From a virus (Duplodnaviria > Caudoviricetes), in IMG/VR virus record IMGVR_UViG_3300042994_000016, positions 1 to 26,447 of that record: DNA of 26,447 nucleotides, one strand, 5' to 3'. Position numbers and translations under genes: made by a program. Every line of letters starts with the position of its first letter. The first letter of the stretch is position 1. Positions 7,270 to 26,135 of this stretch are shown here, in pieces. The notes below the pieces were generated by a model, which saw nothing but the letters and a program-made list of their open reading frames with translations, was not told where the DNA came from and ran no database searches.

Positions 7270-9401
7270 TATGGTCTAACCTTCCTGACCTCGCTTTTCT
7301 GGCGGTAGCCAGCAGCGCGCTTGCTCTCTGTAGCATCCCGCTCCGCAAGGCCACGCTCAAGGCGAGCAACAGCCGCCTGATCGGCACCGCGGGCGTCGAT
7401 GTGATAGGTGGGTGCGTAGGTGGATGCGGCGCCACCAGAGGCGCGTTTCGGAACCGCGGGCGTCTGGAACTTCACCGGGATAGACCGGCCATCAGGCAGC
7501 GGAACTGCGGCCTCTGGTCCGGCCTCGCCGAAGATGGCGGCCCGGTTGGACACGCCACCGCGGGCGAACGTCTTCACCGGCTTGCCGTGCGCAGCGATAC
7601 CGCCCTTGGCAAAACCGAAGAGCGAGAACAGGCCGCCGAGGAAGCCGCCACCTCCAGCGCCGCCAGTTCCGAAAAGGGAGTTCAGGCCAATGTCGATGAC
7701 CTTGTCGAGAACCTTGTTCAGCGCGTTCGAGAGTGCATCGGCAGCCGATACGCCAGAACGCAGGTCGCTGATGAAGCCGGAGGCGATGTCCTTCGACATG
7801 TCCTTGAATTCGTTAGCCGTGTCGCGTGCGTGGTCTTGGCTCTCGGTAAGTTTCTCAGCCGCAACGCTCGCGTTGGCGTAGCCTGTCGCGAGTTGGTCAA
7901 TGCTCTCCTTAAGCGCCGGCGTGATCGCCATGCCTTCCTTCTGCGCAGCCGCAAGAAGGTCGCTTTCGGCGCGAGCCTTAGCCAAAGCGAAGCCGTAGTC
8001 GTTGACGAGCGGATTGACCTGCGACATTGCCGCGGTTTCCGCCTGAAGCGCGGCAGTGCGCTCCTTTATCTGCTCAATCTCGCGCTGATAGTCGTTGGCT
8101 CCGCCGCCGCTACCGCCTTTGCCCTTCTTGCTGCCGCTACCGGTGTCAGCAACTTTGTATTTAGGGTCAGTTAGGGTGATCTGCGTCGGCGCAGCGGGTA
8201 GACGCGCGCCTTTGTCAGTGGTCTGGACCGGGCCGGCTGCACCTTTGCCAAGAACGCTGTTCTTGATGGCTTCCGACGTTAGCTTGCCGGCCTGCTCAAT
8301 CTGACCTTCAAACGCTTGATTGATGCGGTCGGTGATACCCTTCGTCGAGGTGATGGTAAGCCCACCACCGAAGAAGCTTTTCTGCGCCCCGTCACCAGGG
8401 AGTAATTTGACGAGGCCGTTTCCGACCCGGTCGTACGTGAGGATCTCACCGAGCTTCTGTAGGAAGGTGGTGGCCCTGTTGATGCCGGCATCCATTTCCG
8501 CAGTGACTTGCTGCAGGCCAGAGATCAGGCTGTCGAAGTCGACGCTATTGACGATCTGAGCGATATCATCGATGGCGTTGCCAAAGGTCTCCCCAGCTTT
8601 AGCCGACTGATTGAACTCTCGCGCAGCATCAATGAGCGTCGTGCGCAGGTTGCTGATGCGCGAGTCAATGGTAAGGACGGAGCCAGCTACCTTCTGCTCA
8701 AGAAGTGGAACTCCGGCTTGAAAGCCGTCGAAAAACGCTCTCGATGAGAGGTTGCCGTCGAGCATGATCTGCCTGAGCTTGGCCACCGAGCCATCGGCTT
8801 CCTTGATGCCAGCAGCTGCGGCCTGAAGTATGGTAGGTGCGCCCTCTAGGATGGAGCTAAACTCTTCGGCACGCACGACACCTGCGCCCATCGCCTGGCT
8901 CAACTGTAGAAGAGCGCCACTGGCCTCGGTCGCCGACGTGCCTCCCACACGAAGTGCAAGCGATACGTTTCGGGCGAAACCTTCGATCTGCTGCGATGAA
9001 ACACCAAGTTCATTCTGCACCAGCGACAAGCGGCTGTAGAGGCCGACCAGTGTCTCGATAGGCGCGGCGTTTTCGATGGCAGCGTCATAGAGCGAGCGGT
9101 AAACGCGCTCCAGTTCCTGGCCAGAAAGGCCTGCAACCTTAAGCGCATTGTCTACGCTGGTGGCGGAGTCAGAGAGTGACTTCAGCCCTTGAGCGCCGCC
9201 GATGACGGCGAACGCCTTGCCCACACCAATGGCAGCAGCAGCTGCGCCATTGTTGATCGTCCTACCCATCTTAGCAAAACGGGTCTCAATCTGTCGGGCG
9301 CGCTGGTTTGTAACGCCCATTGCGCGGTTCAGTGAGTTTTCATATTTCTTGATGTCAGCCGAAAGCTGCACCACAAGGCGCTCAAGGTCGGTTGCGGCCA
9401 T
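7269..9401 (-). CDS. Tail tape measure protein
   Basis: 710 aa, Ala-rich and helical; ALLQLSQAMGAGVVRAEEFSSILE tape-measure domain; C-terminal FAKGG...GEAGPEAAVPL. Confidence 0.92.
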   Translation of the reverse strand: MAATDLERLVVQLSADIKKYENSLNRAMGVTNQRARQIETRFAKMGRTINNGAAAAAIGVGKAFAVIGGAQGLKSLSDSATSVDNALKVAGLSGQELERVYRSLYDAAIENAAPIETLVGLYSRLSLVQNELGVSSQQIEGFARNVSLALRVGGTSATEASGALLQLSQAMGAGVVRAEEFSSILEGAPTILQAAAAGIKEADGSVAKLRQIMLDGNLSSRAFFDGFQAGVPLLEQKVAGSVLTIDSRISNLRTTLIDAAREFNQSAKAGETFGNAIDDIAQIVNSVDFDSLISGLQQVTAEMDAGINRATTFLQKLGEILTYDRVGNGLVKLLPGDGAQKSFFGGGLTITSTKGITDRINQAFEGQIEQAGKLTSEAIKNSVLGKGAAGPVQTTDKGARLPAAPTQITLTDPKYKVADTGSGSKKGKGGSGGGANDYQREIEQIKERTAALQAETAAMSQVNPLVNDYGFALAKARAESDLLAAAQKEGMAITPALKESIDQLATGYANASVAAEKLTESQDHARDTANEFKDMSKDIASGFISDLRSGVSAADALSNALNKVLDKVIDIGLNSLFGTGGAGGGGFLGGLFSLFGFAKGGIAAHGKPVKTFARGGVSNRAAIFGEAGPEAAVPLPDGRSIPVKFQTPAVPKRASGGAASTYAPTYHIDARGADQAAVARLERGLAERDATESKRAAGYRQKSEVRKVRP

Positions 9402-9407
9402 TTAAGA

Positions 9408-9557
9408 TTATTCCTTAGACTGCAGCCAGTTGAAGAGCTCGTCTGCCTCGGCGTTCGACATCTTCTCCTCGCCACCCTGCGCCTTTACGTAGCCGTCGAC
9501 CGCAGCCAGAAACTGCCACATCGACATCTCGTTCACATGCTGCGGCGTAAAGCCCAT
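9408..9557 (-). CDS. Tail assembly chaperone, C-terminal (gpT-like) part; probably expressed as a -1 frameshift fusion
   Basis: MGFTPQHVNEMSMWQFLAAVDGY...QSKE (49 aa); the frame stays open upstream to the G-run at 9644-9650. Confidence 0.7.
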   Translation of the reverse strand: MGFTPQHVNEMSMWQFLAAVDGYVKAQGGEEKMSNAEADELFNWLQSKE

Positions 9558-9613
9558 GGCTGCGCCAACTCCATATATCGAAGCAAAGAGGATCTTGCCG
9601 TTTGGCAGATCAT

Positions 9614-9970
9614 CTACTCGGCTTCTGGAATTGGCGCTTCCTGCTCCCCCACAGGCTCCTCCGGAGCCCCAAGAAGGCCGGCGGTCAGAATAGCGAGCGC
9701 GAACTGGTGGTTCTCAAGCGGCGGGCGCATCTCGACGTGCATCCGCACCTTCTTCAGCGCGTCTTCAGACTTCATGCCGCCGCCAATAAGGCCGAGGCGG
9801 ATGACGTTGGTGATATCCTCAATCCGCCACTGGTGCGAATGGAGACGATGCAGGACCACGTATGGCCCGGCATCTGTTTTTTCCTGCAGTTCCGCCAGTT
9901 GGCCCCAGCCGAGACGGAAACTGTAGGTATCGTCGGCCCAGTCGAGCTCAATCTTGGCGTCGCGGCTCAT
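9614..9970 (-). CDS. Tail assembly chaperone (gpG-like; GTA-gp10-like family)
   Basis: 118 aa between tail tube and tape measure genes; FRLGWGQLAELQE and IRLGLIGGGM motifs. Confidence 0.8.
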   Translation of the reverse strand: MSRDAKIELDWADDTYSFRLGWGQLAELQEKTDAGPYVVLHRLHSHQWRIEDITNVIRLGLIGGGMKSEDALKKVRMHVEMRPPLENHQFALAILTAGLLGAPEEPVGEQEAPIPEAE

Positions 9971-10413
9971 CAGGCAAAGGTATCCGTGCGAACGAGAGCG
10001 CCGTCAGACTGCATCGATACGTTGAGCGTGACACGTCCGCCCTGTTCCGCGCCGATTTCCAAAGATTCAACGTGCATCTTGCCGGTCCAGGTAACTGTGC
10101 CGCCAGTGAATTCGACCTCGATCTTGACTGGAACAGCCTCGGTGCTTTCGTAAGCATCGAGCCATGTCACAACAGACGACGCGGCAAGCACGCCCTCGCC
10201 AGAGACGGAGGACGTGATGCTCTCGACATCGCGGCCAATCACGATCGGCGCGTCCGGGTCGGCGCAATCGGGCAAGCTAACCTCGCTCAGGCTCTTGCCA
10301 AGCGTCAGGCTCTTGCTGGTAAAGCCGCAAGGTGCGGCATAAACGATAGGGTCGGCATCATCGCCTAGAAGTACGCGGAACTTGCCGAAGCGCGCCGTTA
10401 CTGGTGCAGCCAT
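9970..10413 (-). CDS. Major tail tube protein
   Basis: Likely start MAAPVTARFG at 10413 with GGAG RBS; APCGFTSKSL, PDCADPD, SVSGEGV and MQSDG motifs. Confidence 0.85.
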   Translation of the reverse strand: MAAPVTARFGKFRVLLGDDADPIVYAAPCGFTSKSLTLGKSLSEVSLPDCADPDAPIVIGRDVESITSSVSGEGVLAASSVVTWLDAYESTEAVPVKIEVEFTGGTVTWTGKMHVESLEIGAEQGGRVTLNVSMQSDGALVRTDTFA

Positions 10414-10460
10414 CTTAGTGGTCTCCAAATCTGTGGTGGTTGTGGCGCGGTTGTGAGCCG

Positions 10461-10877
10461 CTAAGCGACCTCGACTAAGGCCGTAATGCTGACTATGGCG
10501 CGGTTGGTTGCGCCGTCGCTCTCGCGCTGGAAACGCGTAATGCGGTGACTAATCGTCGCTAAAGCGTTTTGCGCCAGCGGAAACTCGACCTCATGAAGCG
10601 CCGCCCTGACGGCGCCGGCCAGTTTGCGAACCTGCGCACTCCCGAAGGCTTCACCGGAGCCCCACGACCAGCAGTCGATTTGCATGGTGATCTCGAGGCC
10701 GTCGATGCATTCCGCGTCATCACTGACGGCGTCAGATGGCCCCATTGAAATATACGGAGGTATAATTGCACCGTCTGGCGGGCGGTCGTAGACGCGATTG
10801 CCAACGAAAGACGAAACTGCCGTTGTGGCCTTCAAGCGATTGATGATTGCGGCCGTTAGTTCATAGGTAGGATCCAT
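10461..10877 (-). CDS. Tail completion/terminator protein (DUF3168-like)
   Basis: RVYDRPP...PYISMG...QIDCWS...VRAALH; synteny. Confidence 0.8.
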   Translation of the reverse strand: MDPTYELTAAIINRLKATTAVSSFVGNRVYDRPPDGAIIPPYISMGPSDAVSDDAECIDGLEITMQIDCWSWGSGEAFGSAQVRKLAGAVRAALHEVEFPLAQNALATISHRITRFQRESDGATNRAIVSITALVEVA

Positions 10878-11344
10878 CAGCCGCCTCCTGCGGCGACCTC
10901 TTTGGCCGCCTTATTAATCGCGCGGGTGATGCGCCCTTTGGCTTTCTTTCGGGTGGCCCGGTACGAGACGAAAAAGTATGGGCGAGCGGGCTGCGCCGGG
11001 ATCTCGGCGCCTTCGAACTTTCCACCGGCCTTATGTGCCGACGTACCAAACTCGACCCATCGCGCCCAAAATGCGTCGCTGTTGCCGGCGTAGACGGTAA
11101 TCGTGAGGTCGCCACCGACGCCTTCGACCCTGCCGATAGCCATGGCACCTTTCGTCGCCCTACCCCACGTCCAGCCAATGCTTTCCTTCAATGCGCCCGT
11201 GTCAGTCGGGACGAGAGATTTGGCCAGCGTGACCATCTCTTCAGCACCCTCCTCCATCGCTTTCCTGATGCGCTCTTTCGCAACGTTCGGCAGGCGGTCA
11301 AGTTTGCGCTGGAGTTCTCTGAGACGAAGGATTCGAGCCGTCAT
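10877..11344 (-). CDS. HK97 gp10-like neck/tail component
   Basis: VPTDTGALKESI, WVEFGT and ARPYFF motifs. Confidence 0.85.
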   Translation of the reverse strand: MTARILRLRELQRKLDRLPNVAKERIRKAMEEGAEEMVTLAKSLVPTDTGALKESIGWTWGRATKGAMAIGRVEGVGGDLTITVYAGNSDAFWARWVEFGTSAHKAGGKFEGAEIPAQPARPYFFVSYRATRKKAKGRITRAINKAAKEVAAGGG

Positions 11345-11691
11345 GCGCTTGCCTGCGCGCCGATGGTGGCCAGCATCTCGATGAACCTGTTCTGTTGATC
11401 AGTATTCACCGGAGGCGATGTGATGGCGTAGACCTGGGAGGTGCGCTTGTCGACGGCGCGCCATGTTGAATCCAGTGAGCGCGTGGCGTCGTGCGACCGG
11501 ACACGGATTGTCACCGGCTGGAGACCCTGAAGCCTTGCACCCATGACGGCTTCCGTGCCCATGCGCGGAATGATTTCCGCGGCGTCTTCGAAGACCGTCG
11601 CGAAATCACCGGTCACTTCATTGCCATATCCGTCATCGCTGACGGCGCGCTTTTGAAACAACAGCAGAGAGCGAAGTTTTCCTGCCGGCAT
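11341..11691 (-). CDS. Head closure / head-tail joining protein
   Basis: MPAGKLR...DDGYGN N-terminus typical of SPP1 gp16-like proteins. Confidence 0.8.
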   Translation of the reverse strand: MPAGKLRSLLLFQKRAVSDDGYGNEVTGDFATVFEDAAEIIPRMGTEAVMGARLQGLQPVTIRVRSHDATRSLDSTWRAVDKRTSQVYAITSPPVNTDQQNRFIEMLATIGAQASA

Positions 11692-11845
11692 CTGCTGGCC
11701 TTTCCGTAGGGACTGCGCGACCTACCGATATGGCTGCGGCCGCACAGGATCGTGTGACGTATTCCGTCATGCTGGCGCGATAAGCGATGGTCACTGACGG
11801 CCGCGGTTTCCAGTCGAAGTCCGCGGTAAACCGCACCCAGGGCAT
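11633..11845 (-). CDS. Small phage hypothetical protein (70 aa)
   Basis: TGATG coupling to the upstream gene; fills the gap within the neck module. Confidence 0.6.
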   Translation of the reverse strand: MPWVRFTADFDWKPRPSVTIAYRASMTEYVTRSCAAAAISVGRAVPTERPADAGRKTSLSAVVSKARRQR

Positions 11846-13966: not shown

Positions 13967-14572
13967 CTACGAGGCGTCCTGCCGGATGCCCCGAAACTTT
14001 TGCTCTTGCAGAGCACGCTTCTCAGCCAGACGGCGAGCCGCGGCTACCTTGTTTCGCGCGTAACCTTCGGCGCGGGCCTCCTCAAGCGAGCGCTTGCCGA
14101 GGGTGGTGTCTTCGTAGGCCGGAATCGGCGTGGCCGTCACCTCGAAAAGGTCGGCCTCAAGGATGGTCCGCTTCGGCAGATCGCCGGTGTCGTCCCACTC
14201 TTGCTTGTTGGCTCGAAATCCGAAGCTCATGCCGCTGATATCGCCACGCTCGACGAGCTCCCAGAGGTCATTGCCGTCCGTAGTGTTCGGGACGTCAATT
14301 TCGACCTTCAGGCCGCGCTCGTCCTCGACGAGGCGAAGCGTCTTGCTCTTCGTGCGACCGATCACCCGGCCATGGTCGTGATTGACCAAAGCCAGAATGT
14401 CGTTGCGGATTGCCTTCGTGAAAGCGCCAGGGGCGATGCGCTCGATGAAATAGTCGCCGATCGTCGTGTCGCTGTTCCAGACAACGGCGTAGCCGGTGAG
14501 CGTCCGCTTCTCACTGTCGGCGCGGATCTCCACGCCAAGCGAGCCGCCGCGCTTCTCGATATCTTTGATCAT
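13967..14572 (-). CDS. HK97-family prohead protease
   Basis: GYAVVWN, ERIAPGAF, NHD, GDISGMSFGF, EVT...PAY motifs. Confidence 0.93.
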   Translation of the reverse strand: MIKDIEKRGGSLGVEIRADSEKRTLTGYAVVWNSDTTIGDYFIERIAPGAFTKAIRNDILALVNHDHGRVIGRTKSKTLRLVEDERGLKVEIDVPNTTDGNDLWELVERGDISGMSFGFRANKQEWDDTGDLPKRTILEADLFEVTATPIPAYEDTTLGKRSLEEARAEGYARNKVAAARRLAEKRALQEQKFRGIRQDAS

Positions 14573-15846
14573 GCGGCTTCCGCCTCGTCATTGTTGCTAT
14601 CATTGGACGAAGACGGCGGGTCGCCGCCTCGTCCTGTATCCATCGGCTGAGTTCCCAACGGAACCGTTGCGCCCTGCACAAGCAGATCGTCGCCCTTCGG
14701 CATAGCCGGCCTGTTCTCGAGCGCGCGAGCCTCATTTGGCGTCATCTGCGCCGTCTGAATCGCGCGTGCGATACCCTCGACGCGGCTCTTGAAATCGCCC
14801 CGCATCAGGCCGTCGAGATTGTGCTCCACATAGCGCGAAGCGCCGTCACGGCCGAAGAATTTGAGGTTGATTTCATCCTCAAGCGCCTTGGCCCACTGGC
14901 CGATCAGGTGCTTGACCAGATGCAAGTCCTGCTGCTCGGCGTTGCTGAAGGTCGCACGGCTCAAATCCTGCAGAAACACCGGCGGCAATTGCCACGCCCT
15001 GGCGATCTCCTCGACCTGGAAGCGGCGAGCCTCGATCATCTGGCCTTTTGCAGGGTCCAGACCGACCGGCGTCAGCTTGTAGCCAGGTGGAATTGCGAAC
15101 ACCGCCTCATTGGCGTTCTTCGCGCTATCGACTGACCGCTTGATGTCACCTTGTGCACGCTTCATCGCTTCGGCGTTGGCAGGCAACGGGCCTTCCAAGG
15201 ACAGCGGCGGGACACCGCCACCAGCGAAGAAGTTTGAGCCGTAGTCGTTCATGGCAATCGCAAGCTGGATTGCCTTCGTCGCCCTCTGGATAGGCCCGTA
15301 GTGTTTCAGGCCGTCGGAATGCAGCATGAATGGGACGTCGATGACGTCCTCCGCCGCGTAATCTCTGCCGTCGAACTGGTAGACGACGCGAAAGCCCGTC
15401 CGTTTGATGACGGTCTTGGCCGGGTCCATCGGCCACAGCGAGTCGATGCCCTGCGGCGTTCGCTCGATATAAGCCAGACCGCGGCCACCGGTGAAAACCT
15501 GCTGCCAGAACCACTGCCAGAACGCGAACGAGCCCATAGTCTCGTTTGGCGAGCGATTAACGACCGTCTCCAGCCGTCCGCCGACGCGCTTGGCGCCGTC
15601 CTTGCTGTTGCGGTACGCGTGCCTCGGCAGCGCGGCCAGTGTGCGGGACATAAACGCCACTGCAGCCAGCACGGCCGGCACTGTGAGAGCCGCATCGATC
15701 GTGACGCGCGGCAGGGTCGCCTGCTGCACGCCGAAGAATGCCATGAAGTTCTCAGAACTCACCGGCACCGTCGGGTTTTCGATGCTTGCTCGCGTTTCCG
15801 CCGCTTTTTCGACGTTTCGGCGGCCAAAGCCAAAGTTCCAAGCCAT
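14569..15846 (-). CDS. HK97-family portal protein
   Basis: Likely start MAWNFG at 15846 (TAATG overlap); EEIARAWQLPP, TFSNAEQQ, MTPNEARALEN motifs. Confidence 0.93.
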   Translation of the reverse strand: MAWNFGFGRRNVEKAAETRASIENPTVPVSSENFMAFFGVQQATLPRVTIDAALTVPAVLAAVAFMSRTLAALPRHAYRNSKDGAKRVGGRLETVVNRSPNETMGSFAFWQWFWQQVFTGGRGLAYIERTPQGIDSLWPMDPAKTVIKRTGFRVVYQFDGRDYAAEDVIDVPFMLHSDGLKHYGPIQRATKAIQLAIAMNDYGSNFFAGGGVPPLSLEGPLPANAEAMKRAQGDIKRSVDSAKNANEAVFAIPPGYKLTPVGLDPAKGQMIEARRFQVEEIARAWQLPPVFLQDLSRATFSNAEQQDLHLVKHLIGQWAKALEDEINLKFFGRDGASRYVEHNLDGLMRGDFKSRVEGIARAIQTAQMTPNEARALENRPAMPKGDDLLVQGATVPLGTQPMDTGRGGDPPSSSNDSNNDEAEAA

Positions 15847-17408
15847 TATGCCGCCTTTGTGAGTGCGAATTCCGGGTCGTCCCAAGGGGAACTGGCTGGC
15901 AATGCCGGCACATATTCCTCGGCAGCAGAAAGGGCCATGACCAAAGAAATCATGCCGTCAATGCGCCCTCGGCTGCCCGCCTTAGTGAGTTTACGGTTGC
16001 CGGCGTCATCTTTTTTTACGACTGCATTGCCGGCACACATCGTCAAGACAGGATGGTTGCCGTGGCGGACCTTGCCGTTTAGCAGCAGCGATTCCGTCGT
16101 CCTGAGTGCGGGCGACATGGAGACGAACCCCTGCCCGAATTCGACGAATTTCTCATCGATCTCCGCCTCGCCAAATCCTGCTCTCAGTAGGCAGGGTCGG
16201 AGGTGGCGGAAGTTGTAGCGGTCGAACGCGATCTTCTGAACATTGAAGTCGTCGCAGACGTCGCGAATGTGGCGGGCGATGTGGTCGTACTCGATACTCT
16301 TCGCGCCAGGAATTGCTTCGATGAAGCCGTCCTCCGCCCACACGTCGTATGCGACCCGATCCATACGCGCTTTCGATGCGAGACCTTCACCAGGCAACCA
16401 GAAGTGAGGCCGCACATCCCAAAGATCATCCTCAGGCGCAACCAGTACCAGGCTGGTCAAGTCGCTACATTCGCTGAGGTCGAGGCCTCCAAACACAGGC
16501 CTCCCAAGGAAATCCCGATTTGGCTCGGATGCGTTCTCCATCCACACCTTGCGCGATACGAACGGGTTGGTCGTCTCCACTCGGCGATTCAGGACCAGGT
16601 TCTCGAACTCGGCGGCGCGCGACGGCATATTCCGCGCGTCCTCCATCATGCCCAGGACCTCCTCCTGGTTCATGAAGATATCAAACGCTGGATTTGCCGC
16701 CCTCACCGCCTCTACCGTGAAGGTATCAAGTTCTGCGGGAGCCGTTTGAAAGCGTAAGACTGTCCGAGGGTCGCGAGCCTTCTTCGCATCGTCGATCAGC
16801 ACTGAGAGCAGATCGGCATCAGTGGGAGCTTGTGTGCTGATGATGATGGAAAGTGGCTCGCCTTGAGCTGCGGTTGCAGTTTCAAGCGCGTCATAAAGGG
16901 ATGACCGAGGCCCCTTCACCTGGCCGAGCTCGTCGTGGATCGTGAGCACAGGAGACAGACCGTAAGCAGTCGCAGCGTCAGCCGAAAGCGCGCGATAGAC
17001 TGTGCCGAGCTCGCGACAGACGATGCGTTTCCCGCTGTCTTTTGGCTCAGCATAAGCTGAAAGCACCGGCGACATCCGGATCATCTTCGCTGCGAGCTCA
17101 AACAAGATCGCGGCCTGGTCGCGCGATTGCGCGGCGCTGTAAAGCTGCCCGTTACGCTTCGCCTCAGGGCCGCACAAATGCAGCAAGAGGATCATCGCGC
17201 TTTCGGTCGTCTTTGCGTTCTTTCGACCGCGTGAGATGATTGCGCGCCTGGTGCCGTGCTCGTTGTCGTAGATTGCACGCAGGTCGTCCTTCATGAAGCC
17301 TGCAAGCTTTATCGGCTGGCCCACGAACCTGCCCTCAGGGATGCGAATGTGCTTCTCAAGCCAGCGGATGTTTCGCTCGGCTCGGCTAATCGTCGTCGCC
17401 ATCATCAT
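15846..17408 (-). CDS. terL: Terminase large subunit
   Basis: Walker A-like GRKNAKT, Walker B TIHDE, ISTQ coupling motif, nuclease GLDLS and RIDG; exact start among three ATGs uncertain. Confidence 0.95.
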   Translation of the reverse strand: MMMATTISRAERNIRWLEKHIRIPEGRFVGQPIKLAGFMKDDLRAIYDNEHGTRRAIISRGRKNAKTTESAMILLLHLCGPEAKRNGQLYSAAQSRDQAAILFELAAKMIRMSPVLSAYAEPKDSGKRIVCRELGTVYRALSADAATAYGLSPVLTIHDELGQVKGPRSSLYDALETATAAQGEPLSIIISTQAPTDADLLSVLIDDAKKARDPRTVLRFQTAPAELDTFTVEAVRAANPAFDIFMNQEEVLGMMEDARNMPSRAAEFENLVLNRRVETTNPFVSRKVWMENASEPNRDFLGRPVFGGLDLSECSDLTSLVLVAPEDDLWDVRPHFWLPGEGLASKARMDRVAYDVWAEDGFIEAIPGAKSIEYDHIARHIRDVCDDFNVQKIAFDRYNFRHLRPCLLRAGFGEAEIDEKFVEFGQGFVSMSPALRTTESLLLNGKVRHGNHPVLTMCAGNAVVKKDDAGNRKLTKAGSRGRIDGMISLVMALSAAEEYVPALPASSPWDDPEFALTKAA

Positions 17409-18746: not shown

Positions 18747-19523
18747 CTAGGCTGCTCGACGCTTGACCTTTAACGCTTCTAACTCTTCCGCCACAACGCC
18801 AAGGCCCATCATTAGGATGGCGCCGCCGACTGACATGGCTGCGCGCTCGTTGGTGGCGAAGCAGTTCCAACCAACTTGCTCAAGCTTCTTGCCTTCCAGT
18901 ACGAGGCGCTCGAACGGCATCAGGAGCGGACCCAGGGCGGCCCGTATGCGAGCAAGCTGCGGACCCGCGTCGATGCGTGCGATAACCGCAGCATCTCCGC
19001 TCCACGGCTTGGGCACGGCAGCCGGCGCTTTCTTGACCTGCATCGGGTCGACTGTCGACTTGCCAGCGTGCTCTCGGCCACTGAATTCGATTCCGCGGAG
19101 CCGTCTCTCACCCTTATATTTCAAGTCACCTGTTGCCGGATCCAGCCACGTAGCTTGATCGACCTGAAGCATATCCGCAGGGGTGTAGGCTTCACCTGTC
19201 AACATTGCACCGCTGTTCGCCTCACGGTCGAGCCGCACATAGGCTAGCAGTGGCTTGAGCATCTCGTTGCGCTGCCCAGCGAGGAGCCACTTGATTGCCG
19301 GCGTCGTATTGTCATTGGCTGGCTTTCCATCCCAGTTGGCGCCCTGCGCTGCCCGTCTGTCAATGCGTGCTACCTCGATCTTCATCGCCCTTGCCTCCTC
19401 TTTGCGTCTGGTCTCAACTGCGGCCTTGCCATCGCGGATCATCTGCCCGATCTCGAGTGGTCTACCCGTCGTGCTGCTTCGCACCACGTTGTCGTTGGCT
19501 GCCTTCAATGTCGTCTGCTCCAT
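18747..19523 (-). CDS. Putative late-gene activator/antiterminator (C-terminus resembles DUF6456)
   Basis: 258 aa in the lambda-Q position before the packaging genes; C-terminal helical pattern LARIRAALGP..FERLVLEGKKLEQVG...ILMMGLGVVAE. Confidence 0.5.
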   Translation of the reverse strand: MEQTTLKAANDNVVRSSTTGRPLEIGQMIRDGKAAVETRRKEEARAMKIEVARIDRRAAQGANWDGKPANDNTTPAIKWLLAGQRNEMLKPLLAYVRLDREANSGAMLTGEAYTPADMLQVDQATWLDPATGDLKYKGERRLRGIEFSGREHAGKSTVDPMQVKKAPAAVPKPWSGDAAVIARIDAGPQLARIRAALGPLLMPFERLVLEGKKLEQVGWNCFATNERAAMSVGGAILMMGLGVVAEELEALKVKRRAA

Positions 19524-19846
19524 TTCGGCTTGGGGTCTGGTAGTCCTCGAATTGCTTCCGATGCGGCTGTGGGCTCATCGTCTGGGCCTTCCACCAAACA
19601 CGCAGCGCGTTCGCGCATCCCAGCGGCCGCCCTTCGTCGCTCTTCCTCAGCGACGGTCACTGTGACCGACCGCTGCAGCACATAGTCTCTGTCAGCCTTA
19701 GCGGTGGCTAGCTCGCGCTCTAGCCTCGTGATCTTCGCCTGGAGTTGGCCGACTGCGATTGAAGCGTCATTGCAACGGTCACGCCAGTAGGCACCCTGCC
19801 GACGCGGATCGCGCGGCGCCAGTTGGGCGGCGAGGTTCATGTCCAT
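19505..19846 (-). CDS. Hypothetical coiled-coil protein (113 aa)
   Basis: Co-oriented and overlapping the next gene; heptad segment LQAKITRLERELATAK. Confidence 0.65.
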   Translation of the reverse strand: MDMNLAAQLAPRDPRRQGAYWRDRCNDASIAVGQLQAKITRLERELATAKADRDYVLQRSVTVTVAEEERRRAAAGMRERAACLVEGPDDEPTAASEAIRGLPDPKPKWSRRH

Positions 19847-19902
19847 CAGAGGCTCTTAGAAGTTGGTTGATGGTCGGCGGTGAAACGCGGGCTATAAGAC
19901 CA

Positions 19903-19931
19903 ATATAGTAATCTGCTGGAAGAACGTCCGC
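19903..19931 (-). promoter_or_regulatory. Possible sigma70 promoter for the 19846-18747 operon
   Basis: GCGGAC-N17-CTATAT; the -10 matches the rhizobial consensus but the -35 is poor. Confidence 0.3.
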
Positions 19932-20071
19932 GCGATTTGATGCTTTATTGGACGTGGCCGCTAATTCGGCAAGTTCACTGGTTGAAAATAAACTGGCTCA
20001 GCCCCATATCATGGGCACGGCGACGCATGTCCGCTTCGGACGTTTCCGCCCTTCCTCAAGGAGAAAACAAG

Positions 20072-20224
20072 ATGACGAATACCAAAGGCGCCGTAGCGCC
20101 TCTTAGTGCTATCGCTGTTTCAAAAAAGTATCGAATCTCCTTGGAGGACGCTAAGGCGATCCTTGAGCAGCATGGCGAGGATGCGAAGGCGATACACAAA
20201 GCTGCTCGCCGTATCGCTGCCTGA
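20072..20224 (+). CDS. Small hypothetical protein (50 aa, loosely DUF3606-like; moron)
   Basis: Strong AAGGAG RBS before ATG 20072; KKYRISLEDAKAILEQHG pattern; degenerate GCGAC-N16-CGTT promoter at 20020-20044. Confidence 0.7.
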   Translation: MTNTKGAVAPLSAIAVSKKYRISLEDAKAILEQHGEDAKAIHKAARRIAA

Positions 20225-20231
20225 GCGTAGT

Positions 20232-20256
20232 GGAACTATCAGGAATCGCCATCGTT
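20232..20256 (+). promoter_or_regulatory. General-stress sigma (EcfG/RpoE2/SigT) promoter
   Basis: Exact consensus GGAAC-N16-CGTT, 31 nt upstream of ATG 20288. Confidence 0.75.
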
Positions 20257-20287
20257 GTGGTCGATCCGAACCCTCGAGGTGCTACCG

Positions 20288-20791
20288 ATGAAAATTCTAG
20301 CCGCCGCTACAGCCTTCACCCTTCTAACTGGCGTAGCTTTCGCGCAGGACGCTGCGACACCGCCGGCCCAAACTCCGGCGCCAGCAGCCGGCGGCATGCC
20401 TTCTGGCCCACTTCCACCGCCACCAGGTCTGACGCAAGGAACAGCAGCACCGGAAACGAAGGCAGCGACCGACTCTATTCAGCAGAGCCAACGCCGTGGT
20501 CGTCCTGCCCACTTCCGTGTTGACACAGGCAAAGTGAAGCTCAGCCTGCGGTGCGGCGACGACCAGTCCACACAGCAGTGCGCGGAGACGCTCACGAGGC
20601 TCCTGGACCGTCTACAAGAGGCCTCCAGTGACGACCGCACAGATAGTGACGGACGCAGCGCCCGACTGATGCGCGACCGGGATACGGACGGAGATCGCGG
20701 CAACCGCTTTCGCCATCGTGACCGTGACTGGGACGATGAAGATCATGACGACGACTCCGGCCGTGGCCGCGACCGCCGCTGGCGGGACTGA
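20288..20791 (+). CDS. Secreted/periplasmic low-complexity protein (167 aa; moron)
   Basis: GAGGT RBS; signal peptide MKILAAATAFTLLTGVAFA-QD; Pro-rich linker, Cys pair, Asp/Arg-rich tail. Confidence 0.75.
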   Translation: MKILAAATAFTLLTGVAFAQDAATPPAQTPAPAAGGMPSGPLPPPPGLTQGTAAPETKAATDSIQQSQRRGRPAHFRVDTGKVKLSLRCGDDQSTQQCAETLTRLLDRLQEASSDDRTDSDGRSARLMRDRDTDGDRGNRFRHRDRDWDDEDHDDDSGRGRDRRWRD

Positions 20792-20852
20792 GCCTGTCGC
20801 CGGAAACTGGTGACCACGGAGGTACTGGCGCCAAACCGAGGTGAGTACGGAG

Positions 20853-20882
20853 GGCCGGAGCGAGAAGTCGCCCGGCCTTTTT
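20853..20882 (+). terminator. Intrinsic terminator of the plus-strand moron
   Basis: GGCCGG-a-GCGA-gaag-TCGC-CCGGCC followed by TTTTT. Confidence 0.75.
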
Positions 20883-20918
20883 CGTTGGTCAGGCTCAAGA
20901 CCCTTTAAGCTAACGCTA

Positions 20919-21027
20919 GTGTCCGCGACCGGCCCTTGTACGCACGCGGATAAAGAAGTTTAGAAACTGGAAAAAGAGACTAACTTCTTATCGTGTTGCT
21001 GCGCGGGCAAGGGACGGTCGCGGCCAC
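20919..21027. repeat. Large imperfect inverted repeat with an A-rich centre; candidate replication origin
   Basis: GTGTCCGCGACCGGCCCTTGTACGCAC versus the reverse complement of 21001-21027 (22/27 identical), inner AAGAAGTT/AACTTCTT; directly downstream of the primase gene. Confidence 0.6.
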
Positions 21028-21031
21028 TTGG

Positions 21032-23551
21032 TTATGAAGCAGCAATCAGCTGGCGCACCCGCTCCCTCCTGGCCTTTTCTCGCTCCGCTCGGAGCGAAAA
21101 CTCAGTGTAGACCTCCGGATTCACGGTGTAGGTCACCGAATCCCTCCGAACGGCGGGAACAGGATCCACCCATGACATGGCGTCCAGCTTCCGAAGCACC
21201 TCCTCAGCCTGATCGACATCCATCTCCCGCATTGTTCGATCTCCACGCCGTACGTCACGCACCGTGATCTTCTCTGGCTGATGGGAAAGAATCCAGCCGG
21301 CCGTTGCCAAGACCGCGTCGTGCTTATCCGACAGGCCAAGCACGTTCTGGTAAAACGCCAGCGCGTGCGGAAAAAGGAAATCATGCAAGAAGTTTGCAGC
21401 CCGCTTGGCGGTTTCGTACGGTATCACTGCGGCTGGTCGCGGCGACGTGCTATCGATGCAGTGGAACACGATGCAGAGCCTGGCATAGAGACCGTCATAT
21501 TTGCCGACATGCGCAGCTAGCTTCTTATTGAGGATTTCCCAAGACGATTGCATCTCATGGTGTCGCTCAGAAAGTTGCTGCCGAAGATCTTGCCCCGCAG
21601 CATCAAACTTGAGCGGCACCTCCACCATCGCACCTTGCTTCGGCCGCTGCATCTCATGAAGACGCCTAACCACGCCTCCATATTCACCCACAGCCGCCGA
21701 AGGAGGCACGTCCAGACCCACACACGATGGACCAAGGCAGACGGGAAACAAACGCTGCAGAAGGCCGTCGTCAGCCGCGTCTGCTGCGATGCGCCGGATT
21801 GGGTCCGGCTGGATCCCGCCCAGCATTGATACCGAAAGGTTGTCGATTGCCACCACTCCACGACCGACGCGGTTTACGCTGTAGCCGCCGCCGTTAAACG
21901 ACTGGAGCCAGAAGCTCCGATCGGCTGCCGCGCCTTTGCCCGAACCGTACTTCTCCATCGAGCCGAACCAGCCAGAAAGCTCGTCACGGATCAACAGCAC
22001 CCCATCATGGCTGTCGCGAAGAACCTCCTGCGCCGCCTCTACCGTCACGTCCTCAATCCGCACCCGCACCTGACGTGGCGGTGATTTCTCCGCTTTCCCC
22101 GCCTTGTCGAGGCTGTCGTACTTACGCTTCTCCTCCAGATAGCGGCGAACAAGCTCGTCGTCGATCAATCGCAGTGGTCGAGTAGCGGCGTTGATGATCG
22201 GGTTTTTTTTAGCGCTCGGGTTTCCAATGAGGGCGACCCATAGCCTAGCCGACTCCTCCCAATCATCATGGCGTTTCACCTTCAGCGTAATGGCGTCTGG
22301 GATAGCGGCTGCGCAGACGGCCAGAGCGGCTACAGCAAGCCCGCCTGCATCAACACCCATGATCTCCGATTGGGACACAGCGAAATGCTCGATCGCTTCC
22401 GGAAGAAGCCCCAACGGCAGCGACGGGTGCTTGCGTATTTCCCAAGGATCGACAGGTCTATGCGCTTCAACTTGTGGCGCATTGTCATTTGCGGCCACTA
22501 GAGGCGATCGCCGGGCGACAAGTTTGGCAGCCATGGCCTCGCCCGCTGCACGATCGGCCTCGCGTTTCTCTGCGTGTGCTGCTCCGAATTTTCCCCACAA
22601 CCGCACGAAGTCCGCGCGTGCGTCTTTGCTCTCGTACCGCTGAAACCAGTCACCGGTGGCGGCCAAGAAGGCAGCGCACCCCTGCTCGGCGCTTAGTCCG
22701 TCGAAGGCAAGTTGCTCCACAACGGAAGCCGCCCACTCCGATCTGTCACCGACCTCATTAGCGGCAAGCATCTCGACCGCTATAGTAGACAACTCTAGCC
22801 CGTCCAAAGACGGCAAGTTGTCGAGTGTCACCTCCCGCGGATCTGCTGCGGACGACGCCCACGGATCGAGAGCCGCGCTGAATTCAGCGACCGCCACCAG
22901 CGTTCCGTCCCACGCCTCGGCAACGGTCACCAATGCTGGTTCAGCAGGTCGGCCACGGTCCAGCTTGGCCTTGTTCGGCCAGTTGAGCGTGCCTGGGATG
23001 CGCCACACATGGGCAACGTCGGCAGTGCCGTGGTCGGAACCAGTCGCGCGCTTCAGGGCACCTGCAAGCACCTTTGCTTCAGACGGTGGCAGCGGCGTGT
23101 CGAAAAGGATGAACGGCTGAAAATTTCCAGGCGAGGTTTCCAGCCTCAGGCTCTCCTCTACGGGCATCGTGCCTGTTCGACCTGTGTCTGCATCCAAGTC
23201 AGCCACGAGTCCCAGCACGGCCACGATATCAGCCTCGCCGCCGCGTGTGCCGCGCTTCAGCCCCTTGCGCATGACCTGTAGGCCGGTGAACACGTTCGCG
23301 TTCGGCGTCAAAGCGTGAACCATGACCGCATCGGTCATCCCCGCAACGTCGCCCACGGCATGGTGACTTACGACGCCTGGCGTATCTCGGTCGCCCGTAG
23401 GATTGGCATAGTACGTTGAAACGACGAGCAAGCCATCGATGCCGTCGGCGAGGCCGTGGAGCATCTCGATGTGGCTGCGGACGGACGCTTCGTCGAAAGT
23501 TGGAGTAGGCTCACGCTGAGCGGCGAATAATGTTGACGTGTTGCTGGTCAT
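21032..23551 (-). CDS. Replication protein: RepB-type (AEP) primase domain fused to a DUF3987/YfjI-like P-loop domain
   Basis: Likely start MTSNTS at 23551 (GAGGG RBS), 839 aa; ADLDAD, ETSPGNFQ, WRIPGTLNW primase motifs; GNPSAKKNP, RDELSGWFGSM, GGIQP, DGLLQR. Confidence 0.82.
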   Translation of the reverse strand: MTSNTSTLFAAQREPTPTFDEASVRSHIEMLHGLADGIDGLLVVSTYYANPTGDRDTPGVVSHHAVGDVAGMTDAVMVHALTPNANVFTGLQVMRKGLKRGTRGGEADIVAVLGLVADLDADTGRTGTMPVEESLRLETSPGNFQPFILFDTPLPPSEAKVLAGALKRATGSDHGTADVAHVWRIPGTLNWPNKAKLDRGRPAEPALVTVAEAWDGTLVAVAEFSAALDPWASSAADPREVTLDNLPSLDGLELSTIAVEMLAANEVGDRSEWAASVVEQLAFDGLSAEQGCAAFLAATGDWFQRYESKDARADFVRLWGKFGAAHAEKREADRAAGEAMAAKLVARRSPLVAANDNAPQVEAHRPVDPWEIRKHPSLPLGLLPEAIEHFAVSQSEIMGVDAGGLAVAALAVCAAAIPDAITLKVKRHDDWEESARLWVALIGNPSAKKNPIINAATRPLRLIDDELVRRYLEEKRKYDSLDKAGKAEKSPPRQVRVRIEDVTVEAAQEVLRDSHDGVLLIRDELSGWFGSMEKYGSGKGAAADRSFWLQSFNGGGYSVNRVGRGVVAIDNLSVSMLGGIQPDPIRRIAADAADDGLLQRLFPVCLGPSCVGLDVPPSAAVGEYGGVVRRLHEMQRPKQGAMVEVPLKFDAAGQDLRQQLSERHHEMQSSWEILNKKLAAHVGKYDGLYARLCIVFHCIDSTSPRPAAVIPYETAKRAANFLHDFLFPHALAFYQNVLGLSDKHDAVLATAGWILSHQPEKITVRDVRRGDRTMREMDVDQAEEVLRKLDAMSWVDPVPAVRRDSVTYTVNPEVYTEFSLRAEREKARRERVRQLIAAS

Positions 23552-23795
23552 GATTCCCCTCAAGATTTTCCTGTAGTTGCTTCGCAAGTTCAGCCCGCAG
23601 TTCGGGAGACAGGCTCGCCGCGCGGCTTCCATTCTTCGTGGGCGGCGGATAAATCTCGATCCCGCCGCTTGGCGTTTGCACCGCCTGATAATCGTACAGG
23701 ACGAGTCCAGGCATCACGTTGAGGTTGAACTTCGCGATTACGCGGAAGCCTCTAGGCGATGGCGGCATTTCGAGCCGAAGGATCTCCCTGATCAC
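23511..23795 (-). CDS. Hypothetical protein (94 aa), possibly a SpoVG-like nucleic-acid-binding fold
   Basis: GTG start overlapping the upstream TGA; beta-strand pattern followed by a C-terminal helix; fold guess is weak. Confidence 0.55.
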   Translation of the reverse strand: MIREILRLEMPPSPRGFRVIAKFNLNVMPGLVLYDYQAVQTPSGGIEIYPPPTKNGSRAASLSPELRAELAKQLQENLEGNHDQQHVNIIRRSA

Positions 23796-24337
23796 GCTGG
23801 CCACCTTTTGAAGTGGCGAACTCCTCCTTGCCACTCGAATGTTCCGGCATGGCCACGGAGTTGATCTGCGTCCTCCGGAAGAGAGATCCCCAGCGCATCT
23901 ACGAAGTTGCTGAACTCTTCCTGACCCTCTTGCGCAAGCGACTGAGTCGGCGCGTCCAGAGTGAACGCGACATTCTCGCGGTCACCGGTCTTCCGGTTCT
24001 GGAGAGCGACGTGCAGGAAGGTGAATTTGCCCCTCATGCTGAGCTTAGCATCTGCCACCCAGAAGGCGTTCGCCTCGTGTTGATCCCGCCGTAACTTCTG
24101 GTTCACAGCGACCCGTACGAGTATCGCTGTCTCGCCGTCAGCGCAGAAGATGTCACCGAGGGAGCGGAGTGGAATGGTACCTTCGGCAAACTCAATACGA
24201 CGACGGTCGGCATTTCGGACGGTACGCGTTGGCACCAGGACAGGTGACTGATCAAGAAACCCGCATACTTTAGCGCTGCCGTCATTGTAGATCGTGAGCC
24301 CATAACCGCGGACGCTGTTTCGACTGTTTTGAGACAA
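23792..24337 (-). CDS. Hypothetical protein (181 aa); C-terminal half resembles DUF669-type phage ssDNA-binding proteins
   Basis: AAGGAGGA RBS; AQEGQEEFSNFVDALG...DADQLRG pattern; located in the replication module. Confidence 0.55.
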   Translation of the reverse strand: MSQNSRNSVRGYGLTIYNDGSAKVCGFLDQSPVLVPTRTVRNADRRRIEFAEGTIPLRSLGDIFCADGETAILVRVAVNQKLRRDQHEANAFWVADAKLSMRGKFTFLHVALQNRKTGDRENVAFTLDAPTQSLAQEGQEEFSNFVDALGISLPEDADQLRGHAGTFEWQGGVRHFKRWPA

Positions 24338-24394
24338 TAATCCTCCTTCCGGCGCGACGGCCGGTTGTAAAATTGATGATGATGTTGGGTGTGG

Positions 24395-24634
24395 TTAGGC
24401 GGCGCGGCCCTGATAGGCTTCGGCTCGTGTGACCGCGCGTTGGTTATTGTTTGCTGCAGACCATGTATCGCGACATGCTCGCTCGTCCCGCCAAGCGTCG
24501 AGATCGGTTGTCGAGTAGATCACCGCACGACCAAGCTTGTAGTATTGCGGGCCGCCGCCGAAGTGGCGCAATTTGTCTAGCATTGATTTTGAAAGGCCGA
24601 GGTATTCGGCCGCTTGTTTTACCCGAAAGTTCAT
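24395..24634 (-). CDS. AlpA/Xis-like helix-turn-helix protein (excisionase or activator)
   Basis: QAAEYLGLSKSMLDKLRHFGGGPQYYKLGRAVIYSTTDLDAW; directly after the integrase; AAGGAG RBS. Confidence 0.9.
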   Translation of the reverse strand: MNFRVKQAAEYLGLSKSMLDKLRHFGGGPQYYKLGRAVIYSTTDLDAWRDERACRDTWSAANNNQRAVTRAEAYQGRAA

Positions 24635-24637
24635 CGC

Positions 24638-24689
24638 GTCTCCTTATGTTTCAGACATAGGAGACAACGGCGGTTACATTGGCCGCCGT
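24638..24689 (-). promoter_or_regulatory. Two hairpins in the int-alpA spacer; one sequesters the alpA RBS
   Basis: Minus strand ACGGCGG..CCGCCGT, then GTCTCCTATGT-ctgaa-ACATAAGGAGAC, 3 nt before the ATG. Confidence 0.65.
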
Positions 24690-25987
24690 CAACCGCTGTT
24701 GTCGATATTCTTCGACGTCATGGCATCGCTGATGTGCGCACCTATGGCGTCTGCAGCCCGCTTCAGTGGATCAGTATCTAGATGAGCGTACCGTGCCGTT
24801 GTTGCTGCCTGAGTATGCCCCAGCAGCTTTCCCACAATCGGAAGCCCCATGCTGTTTCCCACCCCGACACTCGCAAAGCTGTGACGCAGGTCGTGCAGCC
24901 GCACGTTTTCAAGCTTCGATCGCTTAAGGACCGCCCGCCATGGCTTATTCAAATCTGCTCTTGGCTTCTCTTCGGGGCTTCCCGCACTCTCACTTGCGAT
25001 TACGTATTTACCCACCCTCGGGATGGATTTCAAAACATCAATTGCCGGAGCCGAAAGAACTAAGGTCTTGGGGCCAGTTTTGCTGTCCCCGAGGAAAAGT
25101 ACGCCCCGCTCAAGATCAACCTCCGACCACTTCAGGTCAAGAATCTCGCGGCGCCGCGCACCGGTGAGAAGGTACAGCCGGATCGCTGCCACCGCATGAG
25201 GCCCGTACACCGTGCGTCGGCTCTTAAGCTTCGGCGCATGCTTCGCCCCCTTCTTACTCTCGTCAACGTCGTAAGGGATCCCTACGGTCTCGGCCTCTGT
25301 CAGCGCGGATCCAAGGGACGCCAGCTCTTCGGTGCTTAGGAACCTCTCCATTTTGCGCTCCTTGAAGCGTTCGATGACCGCGGCTGGATTATGTCCAGCC
25401 GGCACCAGACCATGTTTACTGGCCCATCCGAACATTGCTGAAAGGACCGCTAGCGTTCGGTTGGCCATGGTGCGGCCCCCATTGCCTGTCCCGTCTTTTC
25501 CTCGAGTGATATGGGCTTGAAGTCGCGCGACGTCGCTTGCGGTCACAAGCGATCCTCTCATGGAACCTAGCACCGGAATTACATAACGCTCGATTGCCGA
25601 CTTGTACTCCGTATAAGTTCTGGCCTTACGCTTTACTTGGACGTGATCGCGAAGGTATTTCATCGCTATCTCCGACACGGTGTCCGCGCGCCTCTCCTCG
25701 TGCCGGCTGGACGCAGGATCTGCTCCGAGCGTCACCCGCGCCAAGGTACGCGAAGCTTCATCTCGCGCCTCTTCGGGCGACATCATAGCCGGCACTCCAA
25801 GCTTGATGCGTTTCTTTGCAACTGCCCGACCGCCAGCTCCGGGCCGGTACTCCAGGATCCAAGACCGCGCCCCGGTCGGCGAAACCCTCAGGCCAAAGCC
25901 TTTGATGTCAGTGTCGAAATAGATTACTGGCTTGTCCGAAGGTGTAATCGCCTGCACGTTCTTACGTGTGAGTTTCAGCACCGGCAT
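24689..25987 (-). CDS. int: Tyrosine integrase with N-terminal arm-binding domain (P4-like)
   Basis: Likely start MPVLKLT at 25987 (GAGGAG RBS), 432 aa; GFGLRVSPTGARSW; catalytic TGARRREI, KT, HDLRH, LGH, TARY. Confidence 0.96.
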   Translation of the reverse strand: MPVLKLTRKNVQAITPSDKPVIYFDTDIKGFGLRVSPTGARSWILEYRPGAGGRAVAKKRIKLGVPAMMSPEEARDEASRTLARVTLGADPASSRHEERRADTVSEIAMKYLRDHVQVKRKARTYTEYKSAIERYVIPVLGSMRGSLVTASDVARLQAHITRGKDGTGNGGRTMANRTLAVLSAMFGWASKHGLVPAGHNPAAVIERFKERKMERFLSTEELASLGSALTEAETVGIPYDVDESKKGAKHAPKLKSRRTVYGPHAVAAIRLYLLTGARRREILDLKWSEVDLERGVLFLGDSKTGPKTLVLSAPAIDVLKSIPRVGKYVIASESAGSPEEKPRADLNKPWRAVLKRSKLENVRLHDLRHSFASVGVGNSMGLPIVGKLLGHTQAATTARYAHLDTDPLKRAADAIGAHISDAMTSKNIDNSG

Positions 25988-26000
25988 CTGGCTCTCCTCG

Positions 26001-26020
26001 TGTCGCCACCTGTCGCCACC
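26001..26020. repeat. Tandem 10-bp repeat TGTCGCCACC x2; probable integrase arm-type sites
   Basis: Exact direct repeat 115 bp from the att core, abutting the int RBS. Confidence 0.7.
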
Positions 26021-26135
26021 AGATGAGAAAGCCGGTGAAACAACATCTATCAACAGACGAACAAATAGGCCGTTTCTCGCTGTGAATAAAGGCTTTATGA
26101 AACTCAGTGAAACGTGCTACATCAAGTCAGCACAA

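Follow-up and report, generated by a model that had tools for sequence, protein, structure and literature searches.

Proteins of a rhizobial phage lineage carry a motif that mimics the head of the alphaproteobacterial ssrA tag

A tag-like motif enriched in one phage lineage

The virus record IMGVR_UViG_3300042994_000016 (Caudoviricetes), analysed over its whole length of 26,447 nucleotides and referred to here as the window, encodes several proteins that contain the sequence AANDN or PANDN or the variant AANNN. Taken together with its relatives, this phage reveals [AP]ANDN as a lineage-wide short linear protein motif that matches the head of the transfer-messenger RNA (tmRNA) tag of the host, encoded by ssrA. 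There is good support for mimicry, at the level of the protein, of the ssrA tag of alphaproteobacteria. As for its use, the preferred reading, with a probability of about 0.6, is that the motif tethers its carriers to the adaptor SspB and leads to their degradation by ClpXP.

From 19 phage sequences (the window and L001-L018), 14 loci totalling 222 kb were kept once the near-duplicates L002, L005, L014, L016 and L017 had been dropped. All 48 occurrences of ANDN in these loci are on the coding strand and none is on the opposite strand. Its eleven permutations occur 0-6 times, and the highest count, 6 for NDNA, is mostly due to overlap with ANDNA. The named phages 16-3 and RHph_X2_25 hold 18 and 20 copies, respectively, against 0-2 for the permutations. 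Searched for as a DNA pattern, [AP]ANDN gives 173 matches in ~169 Mb from 41 Rhizobiales-order genomes (~1 per Mb), a rate that the window (3 in 26 kb) exceeds ~100-fold. In five host genomes, 15 of 43 matches fall inside the five primase prophage loci; the other 28, judged by eye, are largely off-frame or in short frames, in other mobile elements, or in unrelated internal sequence. The original prediction, made from the letters of the window, had proposed to compare homologous prophages with their hosts, and the comparison bears out the enrichment.

The carriers belong to many non-homologous families. Across the relatives, ANDN is found in the primase linker, portal tails, frames of ~610 residues at the position of the large terminase subunit (TerL), unknown proteins of 330-420 residues, two 16-3 methyltransferases, tiny open reading frames (ORFs), and Xis/AlpA proteins, where it can sit at either end. 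This breadth, the occurrence at both ends of AlpA/Xis-type proteins, and the ~100-fold excess over host genomes make it very improbable that the motif arose by chance or structural convergence, as a helix-capping or linker sequence inherited in a few families. Such an origin is compatible with the non-significant look-elsewhere test on the window described below, with an internal PANDN in host PRPP synthetase, and with one internal copy, in a 258-residue protein of the window, that lies within a conserved WDG-x-ANDN block before a helix. Convergence may fit this last copy alone and is refuted for the lineage as a whole.

A six-frame translation of the window contains exactly four matches to AN[DN]N, all in frame on the minus (coding) strand and all where the original prediction had placed them. 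Three are exact ANDN copies and one, in the Xis protein, is a variant. As was also predicted, the codons differ between copies, the four 12-mers being all distinct (GCCAATGACAAT, GCCAACGACAAC, GCAAATGACAAT and GCAAACAATAAC). In the 31 listed ORFs (8,066 residues), 0.067 copies of ANDN are expected by chance, and for a motif named in advance the probability of at least three is 5e-5. Some equally improbable tetrapeptide nevertheless appears in 193 of 300 within-protein shuffles, and the window alone is therefore no proof; it is the relatives that show the motif to be real. The proteins and sites concerned are as follows.

18747 to 19523, minus strand: ORF of 258 residues ending KRRAA, a homologue of phage 16-3 p107
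19308 to 19322, minus strand: PANDN, internal copy in the 258-residue protein, directly before its first conserved helix (six-frame translation)
19488 to 19502, minus strand: AANDN, N-terminal copy in the 258-residue protein (six-frame translation)
21032 to 23632, minus strand: RepB-type primase fused to a DUF3987 helicase-like domain, ending LIAAS
22481 to 22495, minus strand: AANDN in the variable inter-domain linker of the primase, residues 380-384 (six-frame translation)
24395 to 24634, minus strand: Xis/AlpA-like helix-turn-helix protein of 79 residues with a tag-like tail, ending YQGRAA (Pfam HTH_17, 3e-8; PHROG 66, excisionase)
24443 to 24457, minus strand: AANNN, variant head motif 15 residues before the C-terminal AA at 24398-24403 (six-frame translation)
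14572 to 14610, minus strand: portal C-terminus SSNDSNNDEAEAA, a decayed head (SNDS) plus 8 residues with an AA end (comparison with related portals)
15849 to 15857, minus strand: TerL C-terminus KAA, an AA end without ANDN (TerL comparison)

Conservation of the peptide rather than the DNA

The 48 copies in the 14 loci are written in 20 different 12-mers, which differ at synonymous positions only and stand on the coding strand only, in agreement with the predicted conservation at the protein level. A DNA-level repeat that reads ANDN by accident, such as an operator, a recombination site or a captured piece of ssrA, could account for the single 12-mer (GCCAACGACAAC) that makes up 14 of the 48 copies and for the few copies in very short frames. 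The strand count, the 20 variants and the restriction of their differences to synonymous positions all speak against it, and only 3 of the 48 copies are identical to GCAAACGACAAC, the ssrA sequence of hosts L019 and L020. The window, moreover, has no tRNA or tmRNA gene.

The residue before the motif points the same way. Of 82 unique ANDN contexts from 20 loci, 51 have Ala at position -1 and 22 have Pro (73 of 82 together), whereas the ssrA frames of the hosts have a Val codon there in 5/5. The first Ala of the ssrA tag is supplied by the charged tmRNA and not by the reading frame. Since position -1 is mostly Ala where ssrA codes for Val, the phage copies match the finished tag and not the ssrA gene. 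A DNA-level origin has already been largely refuted, and we give it almost no chance.

Spacing and C-terminal residues are also tag-like in many cases. Among the 31 copies that lie at most 30 residues from the stop, 16 are 7-9 residues away, compared with 8-9 in host tags, and 16 of the 17 copies within 12 residues of the stop are in frames ending in Ala (10 in AA). Farther than 30 residues from the stop are 51 of the 82 copies, 23 of them in frames ending in AA and 28 not. Frames with ANDN end in AA in 19 of 40 cases versus 28 of 254 for the others in the 14 loci. By crude ORF calls, AA ends number 5/121 in host fragments, 12/119 in three gammaproteobacterial phages, and 22/125 and 27/165 in the rhizobial phage sets; these AA-end counts include homologues and are hence not independent. 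In the window itself, 4 of the 31 listed ORFs end in AA, namely Xis, the 258-residue protein, TerL and the portal. The distance from motif to C-terminal end is 15 residues in Xis, 186 and 246 in the 258-residue protein, and 482 in the primase, which ends in AS. Alignments place the motif in variable linkers or tails, and the model of the 258-residue protein places it in coil of low predicted local distance difference test score (pLDDT), so that it is predicted to be accessible.

Carriers of the motif

The motif has been kept, as the original prediction expected, in the homologues of the Xis tail, the primase linker and the 258-residue protein. Counting the window, A-N-x-N is present in 11/11 Xis proteins, with D at the variable position in 9/11, and the C-termini are AA (8), VA (2) and AS (1). 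In the ten other Xis proteins 6-8 residues follow the motif, ending in AA (7), VA (2) or AS (1).

The primase contains Pfam RepB_primase (residues 164-224) and DUF3987 (508-761) and matches PHROG 2373; its real start is probably a later ATG near 23551. Its linker is otherwise variable, while NDN is retained in 10/10 aligned proteins and ANDN in 9/10. A Devosia homologue, covering residues 393-864 only, shows no copy of the motif.

Two C-termini had been overlooked in the first reading, the decayed fifth site in the portal tail and the KAA end of TerL. In the closest portals (45-82% identity), ANDN lies 8-13 residues from an AA end in 7/7, while distant portals (24-27% identity) show this arrangement in 0/5. 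Against these 7/7 close relatives the tail of the window portal is a natural loss control. The KAA end is shared by 5/6 TerL proteins of rhizobial phages at 47% identity or more and by 0/3 gammaproteobacterial TerL proteins.

The 258-residue ORF, which would give 253 residues if started at TTG 19508, overlapping the upstream stop, carries two copies of different constancy. The N-terminal AANDN is exact in ANDN in 8/17 homologues, has one change in 6/17 and is lost in 3/17. The internal copy reads ANDN in 16/17 homologues and the AA end is present in 15/17. The protein has no Pfam, PHROG or PDB sequence match, and an atlas search returned unnamed clusters, with DUF6456 at 18% of members. It aligns with p107 of phage 16-3 at an hhalign probability of 99.7%; p107 retains the second (internal) copy, is placed before an HNH gene and cos, and is annotated as 'similar to putative RNA polymerase sigma factor'. 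The structural model has a mean pLDDT of 66 and a predicted template modelling score of 0.47. Both motif copies fall in low-confidence coil, the internal one in a segment with pLDDT below 50 (residues 52-67). Foldseek retrieved Q21 and extracytoplasmic function (ECF) sigma factors at E 2-8, which is non-significant. The predicted role as a late regulator draws on gene position, p107 homology and these non-significant fold matches to Q21 and ECF sigma factors; the protein is a putative, probably Q- or sigma4-like, late regulator.

Host tags and the adaptor SspB

Each of five hosts of related prophages has one alphaproteobacterial tmRNA, and sspB (PF04386) adjoins ssrA in 5/5. Their Rfam-confirmed tags are ANDNYAEARLAA (3 hosts), ANDNNAKEYALAA and ANDNHKAPVALAA, with an ANDN head in 5/5 followed by 8-9 residues to AA. 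This agrees with the statement in the original prediction that alphaproteobacterial tags start with AANDN, as does the Caulobacter tag AANDNFAEEFAVAA, for which SspB serves as the ClpXP adaptor (PMC9393093). PMC12707154 concerns a different SspB. The endings of two host proteins in these data are also of note. One is a ClpX (L062:8633-9952, minus strand) whose own tail, VANDDGEAKEEAA, resembles the tag and may hint at self-regulation; the other is an Rrf2-family regulator (L041:2959-3453, minus strand) that ends FAANDNGTEIVALRDAEVG.

When a dimer of Rhizobium SspB (residues 1-122) was co-folded with residues 366-399 of the primase, the one copy modelled, the score was 0.66 versus 0.01 for the best of three controls. 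This passes a mark that is reached by 116/157 solved and 2/215 mismatched pairs, counts that apply here roughly. At least 66% of contacts are shared between runs, the partner pLDDT is 55 or higher, and the interface comprises primase residues 378-387, centred on AANDN.

How the motif may work

According to the prediction, the motif would be bound by SspB, the adaptor of the host. Docking would tether the carriers to ClpXP, where the C-terminal Ala-Ala, or a weaker xA or AS end, would be engaged and the protein degraded. Near-terminal copies, as in Xis and the portals, are complete tag look-alikes, and internal copies, as in the primase and the 258-residue protein, would act as tethers paired with a distant C-terminal degron. 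The purpose is probably to keep leaked proteins for excision, replication, late activation and packaging short-lived in the lysogen, while strong lytic expression would outrun the protease. In Caulobacter substrates a C-terminal AA is a degron (PMC8119881), and weak ends become SspB-dependent when an adaptor site is added, as in DAS+4 (PMC8138137).

The original prediction held that the phage wires its lytic activators to SspB and ClpXP. The wiring is favoured by the conservation of the motif, the host tags, the adjoining sspB, the tag-like spacing and the co-fold. The focus on lytic activators in particular is unsupported and too narrow, with the motif also in the primase, the portal tails and TerL-sized frames of relatives, and the 16-3 methyltransferases. 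The idea in the original prediction that protease overload could act as the induction signal is likewise unsupported. A further step, in which SspB/ClpXP load would form a genome-wide post-translational switch over excision, replication and packaging, and saturation of SspB by ribosome stalling or by tag-like mini-peptides made by the phage would stabilise all the tagged proteins at once and lead to lysis, is speculative and unlikely.

Several observations weigh against tethering and degradation. No Xis protein of the family has a weaker copy than that of the window (N in place of D, and a tail of 15 residues instead of 6-8), the portal copy has decayed to SNDS, and the primase has no AA end, its family ending in AS or SS. 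Degrons on portals call for an explanation, and in E. coli an AA end by itself often makes a poor degron (PMC10862746). Residue +1 is aromatic in just 5/82 phage copies, compared with Tyr in 3/5 host tags and Phe in Caulobacter, and an aromatic residue contributes to SspB binding; probable alphaproteobacterial tags, recognised by shape and not by Rfam, likewise vary at this position. SspB homologues have been solved (2QAS, 2QAZ, 2NYS) and a tag-bound structure exists, and for this reason the co-fold may reflect memory or likeness only.

The same co-fold would fit equally well if the main use of SspB binding were that of a decoy or shield. SspB/ClpXP would then be taken up by abundant phage proteins and by tiny tag-like ORFs that are little degraded themselves. 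As a result, tmRNA-tagged proteins or regulatory substrates of the host would be turned over more slowly, or phage proteins would be hidden from other proteases. The 51 of 82 copies more than 30 residues from the stop, 28 of them in frames not ending in AA, are consistent with such a role, as are the AS/SS ends of the primase. Near-terminal copies, however, keep tag-like spacing and Ala ends, for which a pure decoy would have no use. The usual scarcity of Xis-type regulators also counts against this role, and we consider it unlikely. Relatives do encode tiny frames barely beyond the tag: L001:6136 and L004:5665 (plus strand), counted from their first Met, are 22 and 26 residues long and end ELALA and RKIA. 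They occur in L005 and L017 as well and are possible decoy peptides.

The docking motif could also be real and serve another reader, such as ClpA, Lon, another host tag reader or a phage factor, with AA ends acting on ClpX independently. SspB is the only partner that was modelled, several proteases read ssrA tags (PMC8138137), residue +1 is rarely aromatic, and TerL has an AA end without ANDN. In contrast, the co-fold lands on SspB with controls near zero, sspB adjoins ssrA in 5/5 hosts of relatives, and probable alphaproteobacterial tags vary at +1 too. This alternative seems quite improbable, and tethering to SspB followed by degradation by ClpXP remains preferred.

Range of the motif

Outside the lineage the excess fades, which likewise limits the preferred reading. 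The phages HK97, KPP5665-2 (whose TerL is 64% identical) and PAJU2 have no ANDN and 0-3 copies of ANDE/ANDD, and mEp390, lambda, P22, D3 and the alphaproteobacterial RcapMu have 0-1 copies of AND[NDEK] each. In IMG/VR, where figures are estimates from part of the collection, fixed-codon AANDN is found in ~1,800 stretches versus ~1,000 for a permuted control (~1.8x), a modest excess, and AA ends occur in 5/121 versus 0/106 control stretches (p=0.06). The AANDE pattern is rarer (~590 stretches; AA ends 4/110, p=0.12). Because the gammaproteobacterial phages and RcapMu lack enrichment and the virome excess is modest, the motif is a lineage trait, not a rule. The idea that phages track host tags across proteobacteria was rejected, as ANDE/ANDD is not in comparable excess in 7 gammaproteobacterial phages (0-3 each). 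A conserved host client was likewise sought in DUF6101, which carries the motif in 1/20 loci and is thus not general.

Among the matches listed for 151 Pseudomonadota genomes, whole tag look-alikes typically amount to a single probable tmRNA frame in each genome, accompanied by many matches that are out of frame. Some other elements carry similar sequences. A different mobile element with a D5-type primase (L064, plus strand, 7511-11701) has four ANDN copies in three adjoining genes, two of which end in AA. Two N6/N4 methylases (L057:7233-7916, plus strand; L058:8377-9054, minus strand) end PAANDDYPEAA and PAANDEFPEAA, resembling the gamma-type tags of their own genomes. They lie among ParA/B, polymerase, antirestriction and SSB genes, as in an enterobacterial-type plasmid leading region, and their tails hint at independent cases. 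A repeated element, possibly an insertion sequence, is present in four places of one genome (G105; L068:4142-4204, minus strand) and encodes a frame of ANDK followed by 11 residues with an RAA end. At least three of the four places are close to contig ends.

Relation to known systems

The motif is not a tag added by tmRNA and most likely works like an SspB-dependent ssrA degron. As in the alphaproteobacterial ssrA tag, the phage copies share the AANDN head including its first Ala, the Ala-Ala end and, in many copies, the 7-9 residue spacing, and are predicted from the model to use SspB. Unlike the tag, the motif is encoded in ordinary phage genes and not added by trans-translation. Many copies lie inside the protein or at its N-terminus, the first Ala often gives way to Pro, an aromatic residue at +1 is rare, and the middle residues do not resemble the tag.

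A genome-encoded protein as SspB cargo has a precedent in E. coli RseA(1-108), which is delivered to ClpXP via its own C-terminal VAA (PMC8138137, PMC5587285); here such cargo is predicted. RseA is a single host protein exposed by cleavage, whereas in the present phages the tag head itself is built into many proteins. The SspB site of RseA is not known to be a copy of the tag.

Built-in ClpXP signals are also found in MuA (RRKKAI) and lambda O, which are genome-encoded ClpX degrons (PMC8138137), and in the Caulobacter AA substrates; the KRRAA end of the 258-residue protein resembles the ssrA and MuA classes. Those signals are described without an adaptor-binding tag head or 18-20 sites per phage. 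The engineered DAS+4, combining an adaptor site with a weak end, offers a model for the primase (AANDN ... IAAS), but it is synthetic with both parts adjacent, while 482 residues separate the motif of the primase from its C-terminus. Phage pf16 also engages the SspB pathway through gp18, a phage-encoded SspB homologue (PMC5587285); it encodes the adaptor, and the present phages encode the cargo signal.

In the papers cited here, no native SspB cargo is named other than tmRNA-tagged proteins and RseA. Among the matches listed in a literature search, no title or start of an abstract described the motif or phage tag mimicry. If the reading holds, phages such as the cultured 16-3 would hold ~18 natural SspB sites each, many of them internal, with which tethering by an adaptor over long distances could readily be tested, and lysogeny control would gain a new post-translational layer. 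The copies would also give alphaproteobacterial engineering a natural set of degrons of graded strength, and the motif would mark hypothetical phage proteins as probably short-lived.

Genomic context

Pfam and PHROG scans identify the window as most of a temperate siphophage genome, encoded on the minus strand. The set comprises an integrase, the HTH_17/Xis protein, two unknown ORFs, the RepB-primase/DUF3987 protein, a 113-residue ORF and the 258-residue ORF, together with HNH, terminases, portal, protease, capsid and tail genes. These scans, covering 32 window ORFs, recognised no CI-like repressor and no member of the SspB family. One further feature supplies the temperate-phage context.

24689 to 26053, minus strand: tyrosine integrase, without the motif (Pfam/PHROG)

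The early region (21032-26053, minus strand) holds the integrase, Xis, two unknown ORFs and the primase only, and the head and tail module is largely complete. On the opposite strand, a 178-residue ORF (20255-20791, plus strand) without a Pfam or PHROG match is moron-like, with a signal-peptide-like start and an acidic/basic tail. Homologous primases are found in Rhizobium, Shinella, Ensifer, Devosia and one unclassified Rhizobiales genome.

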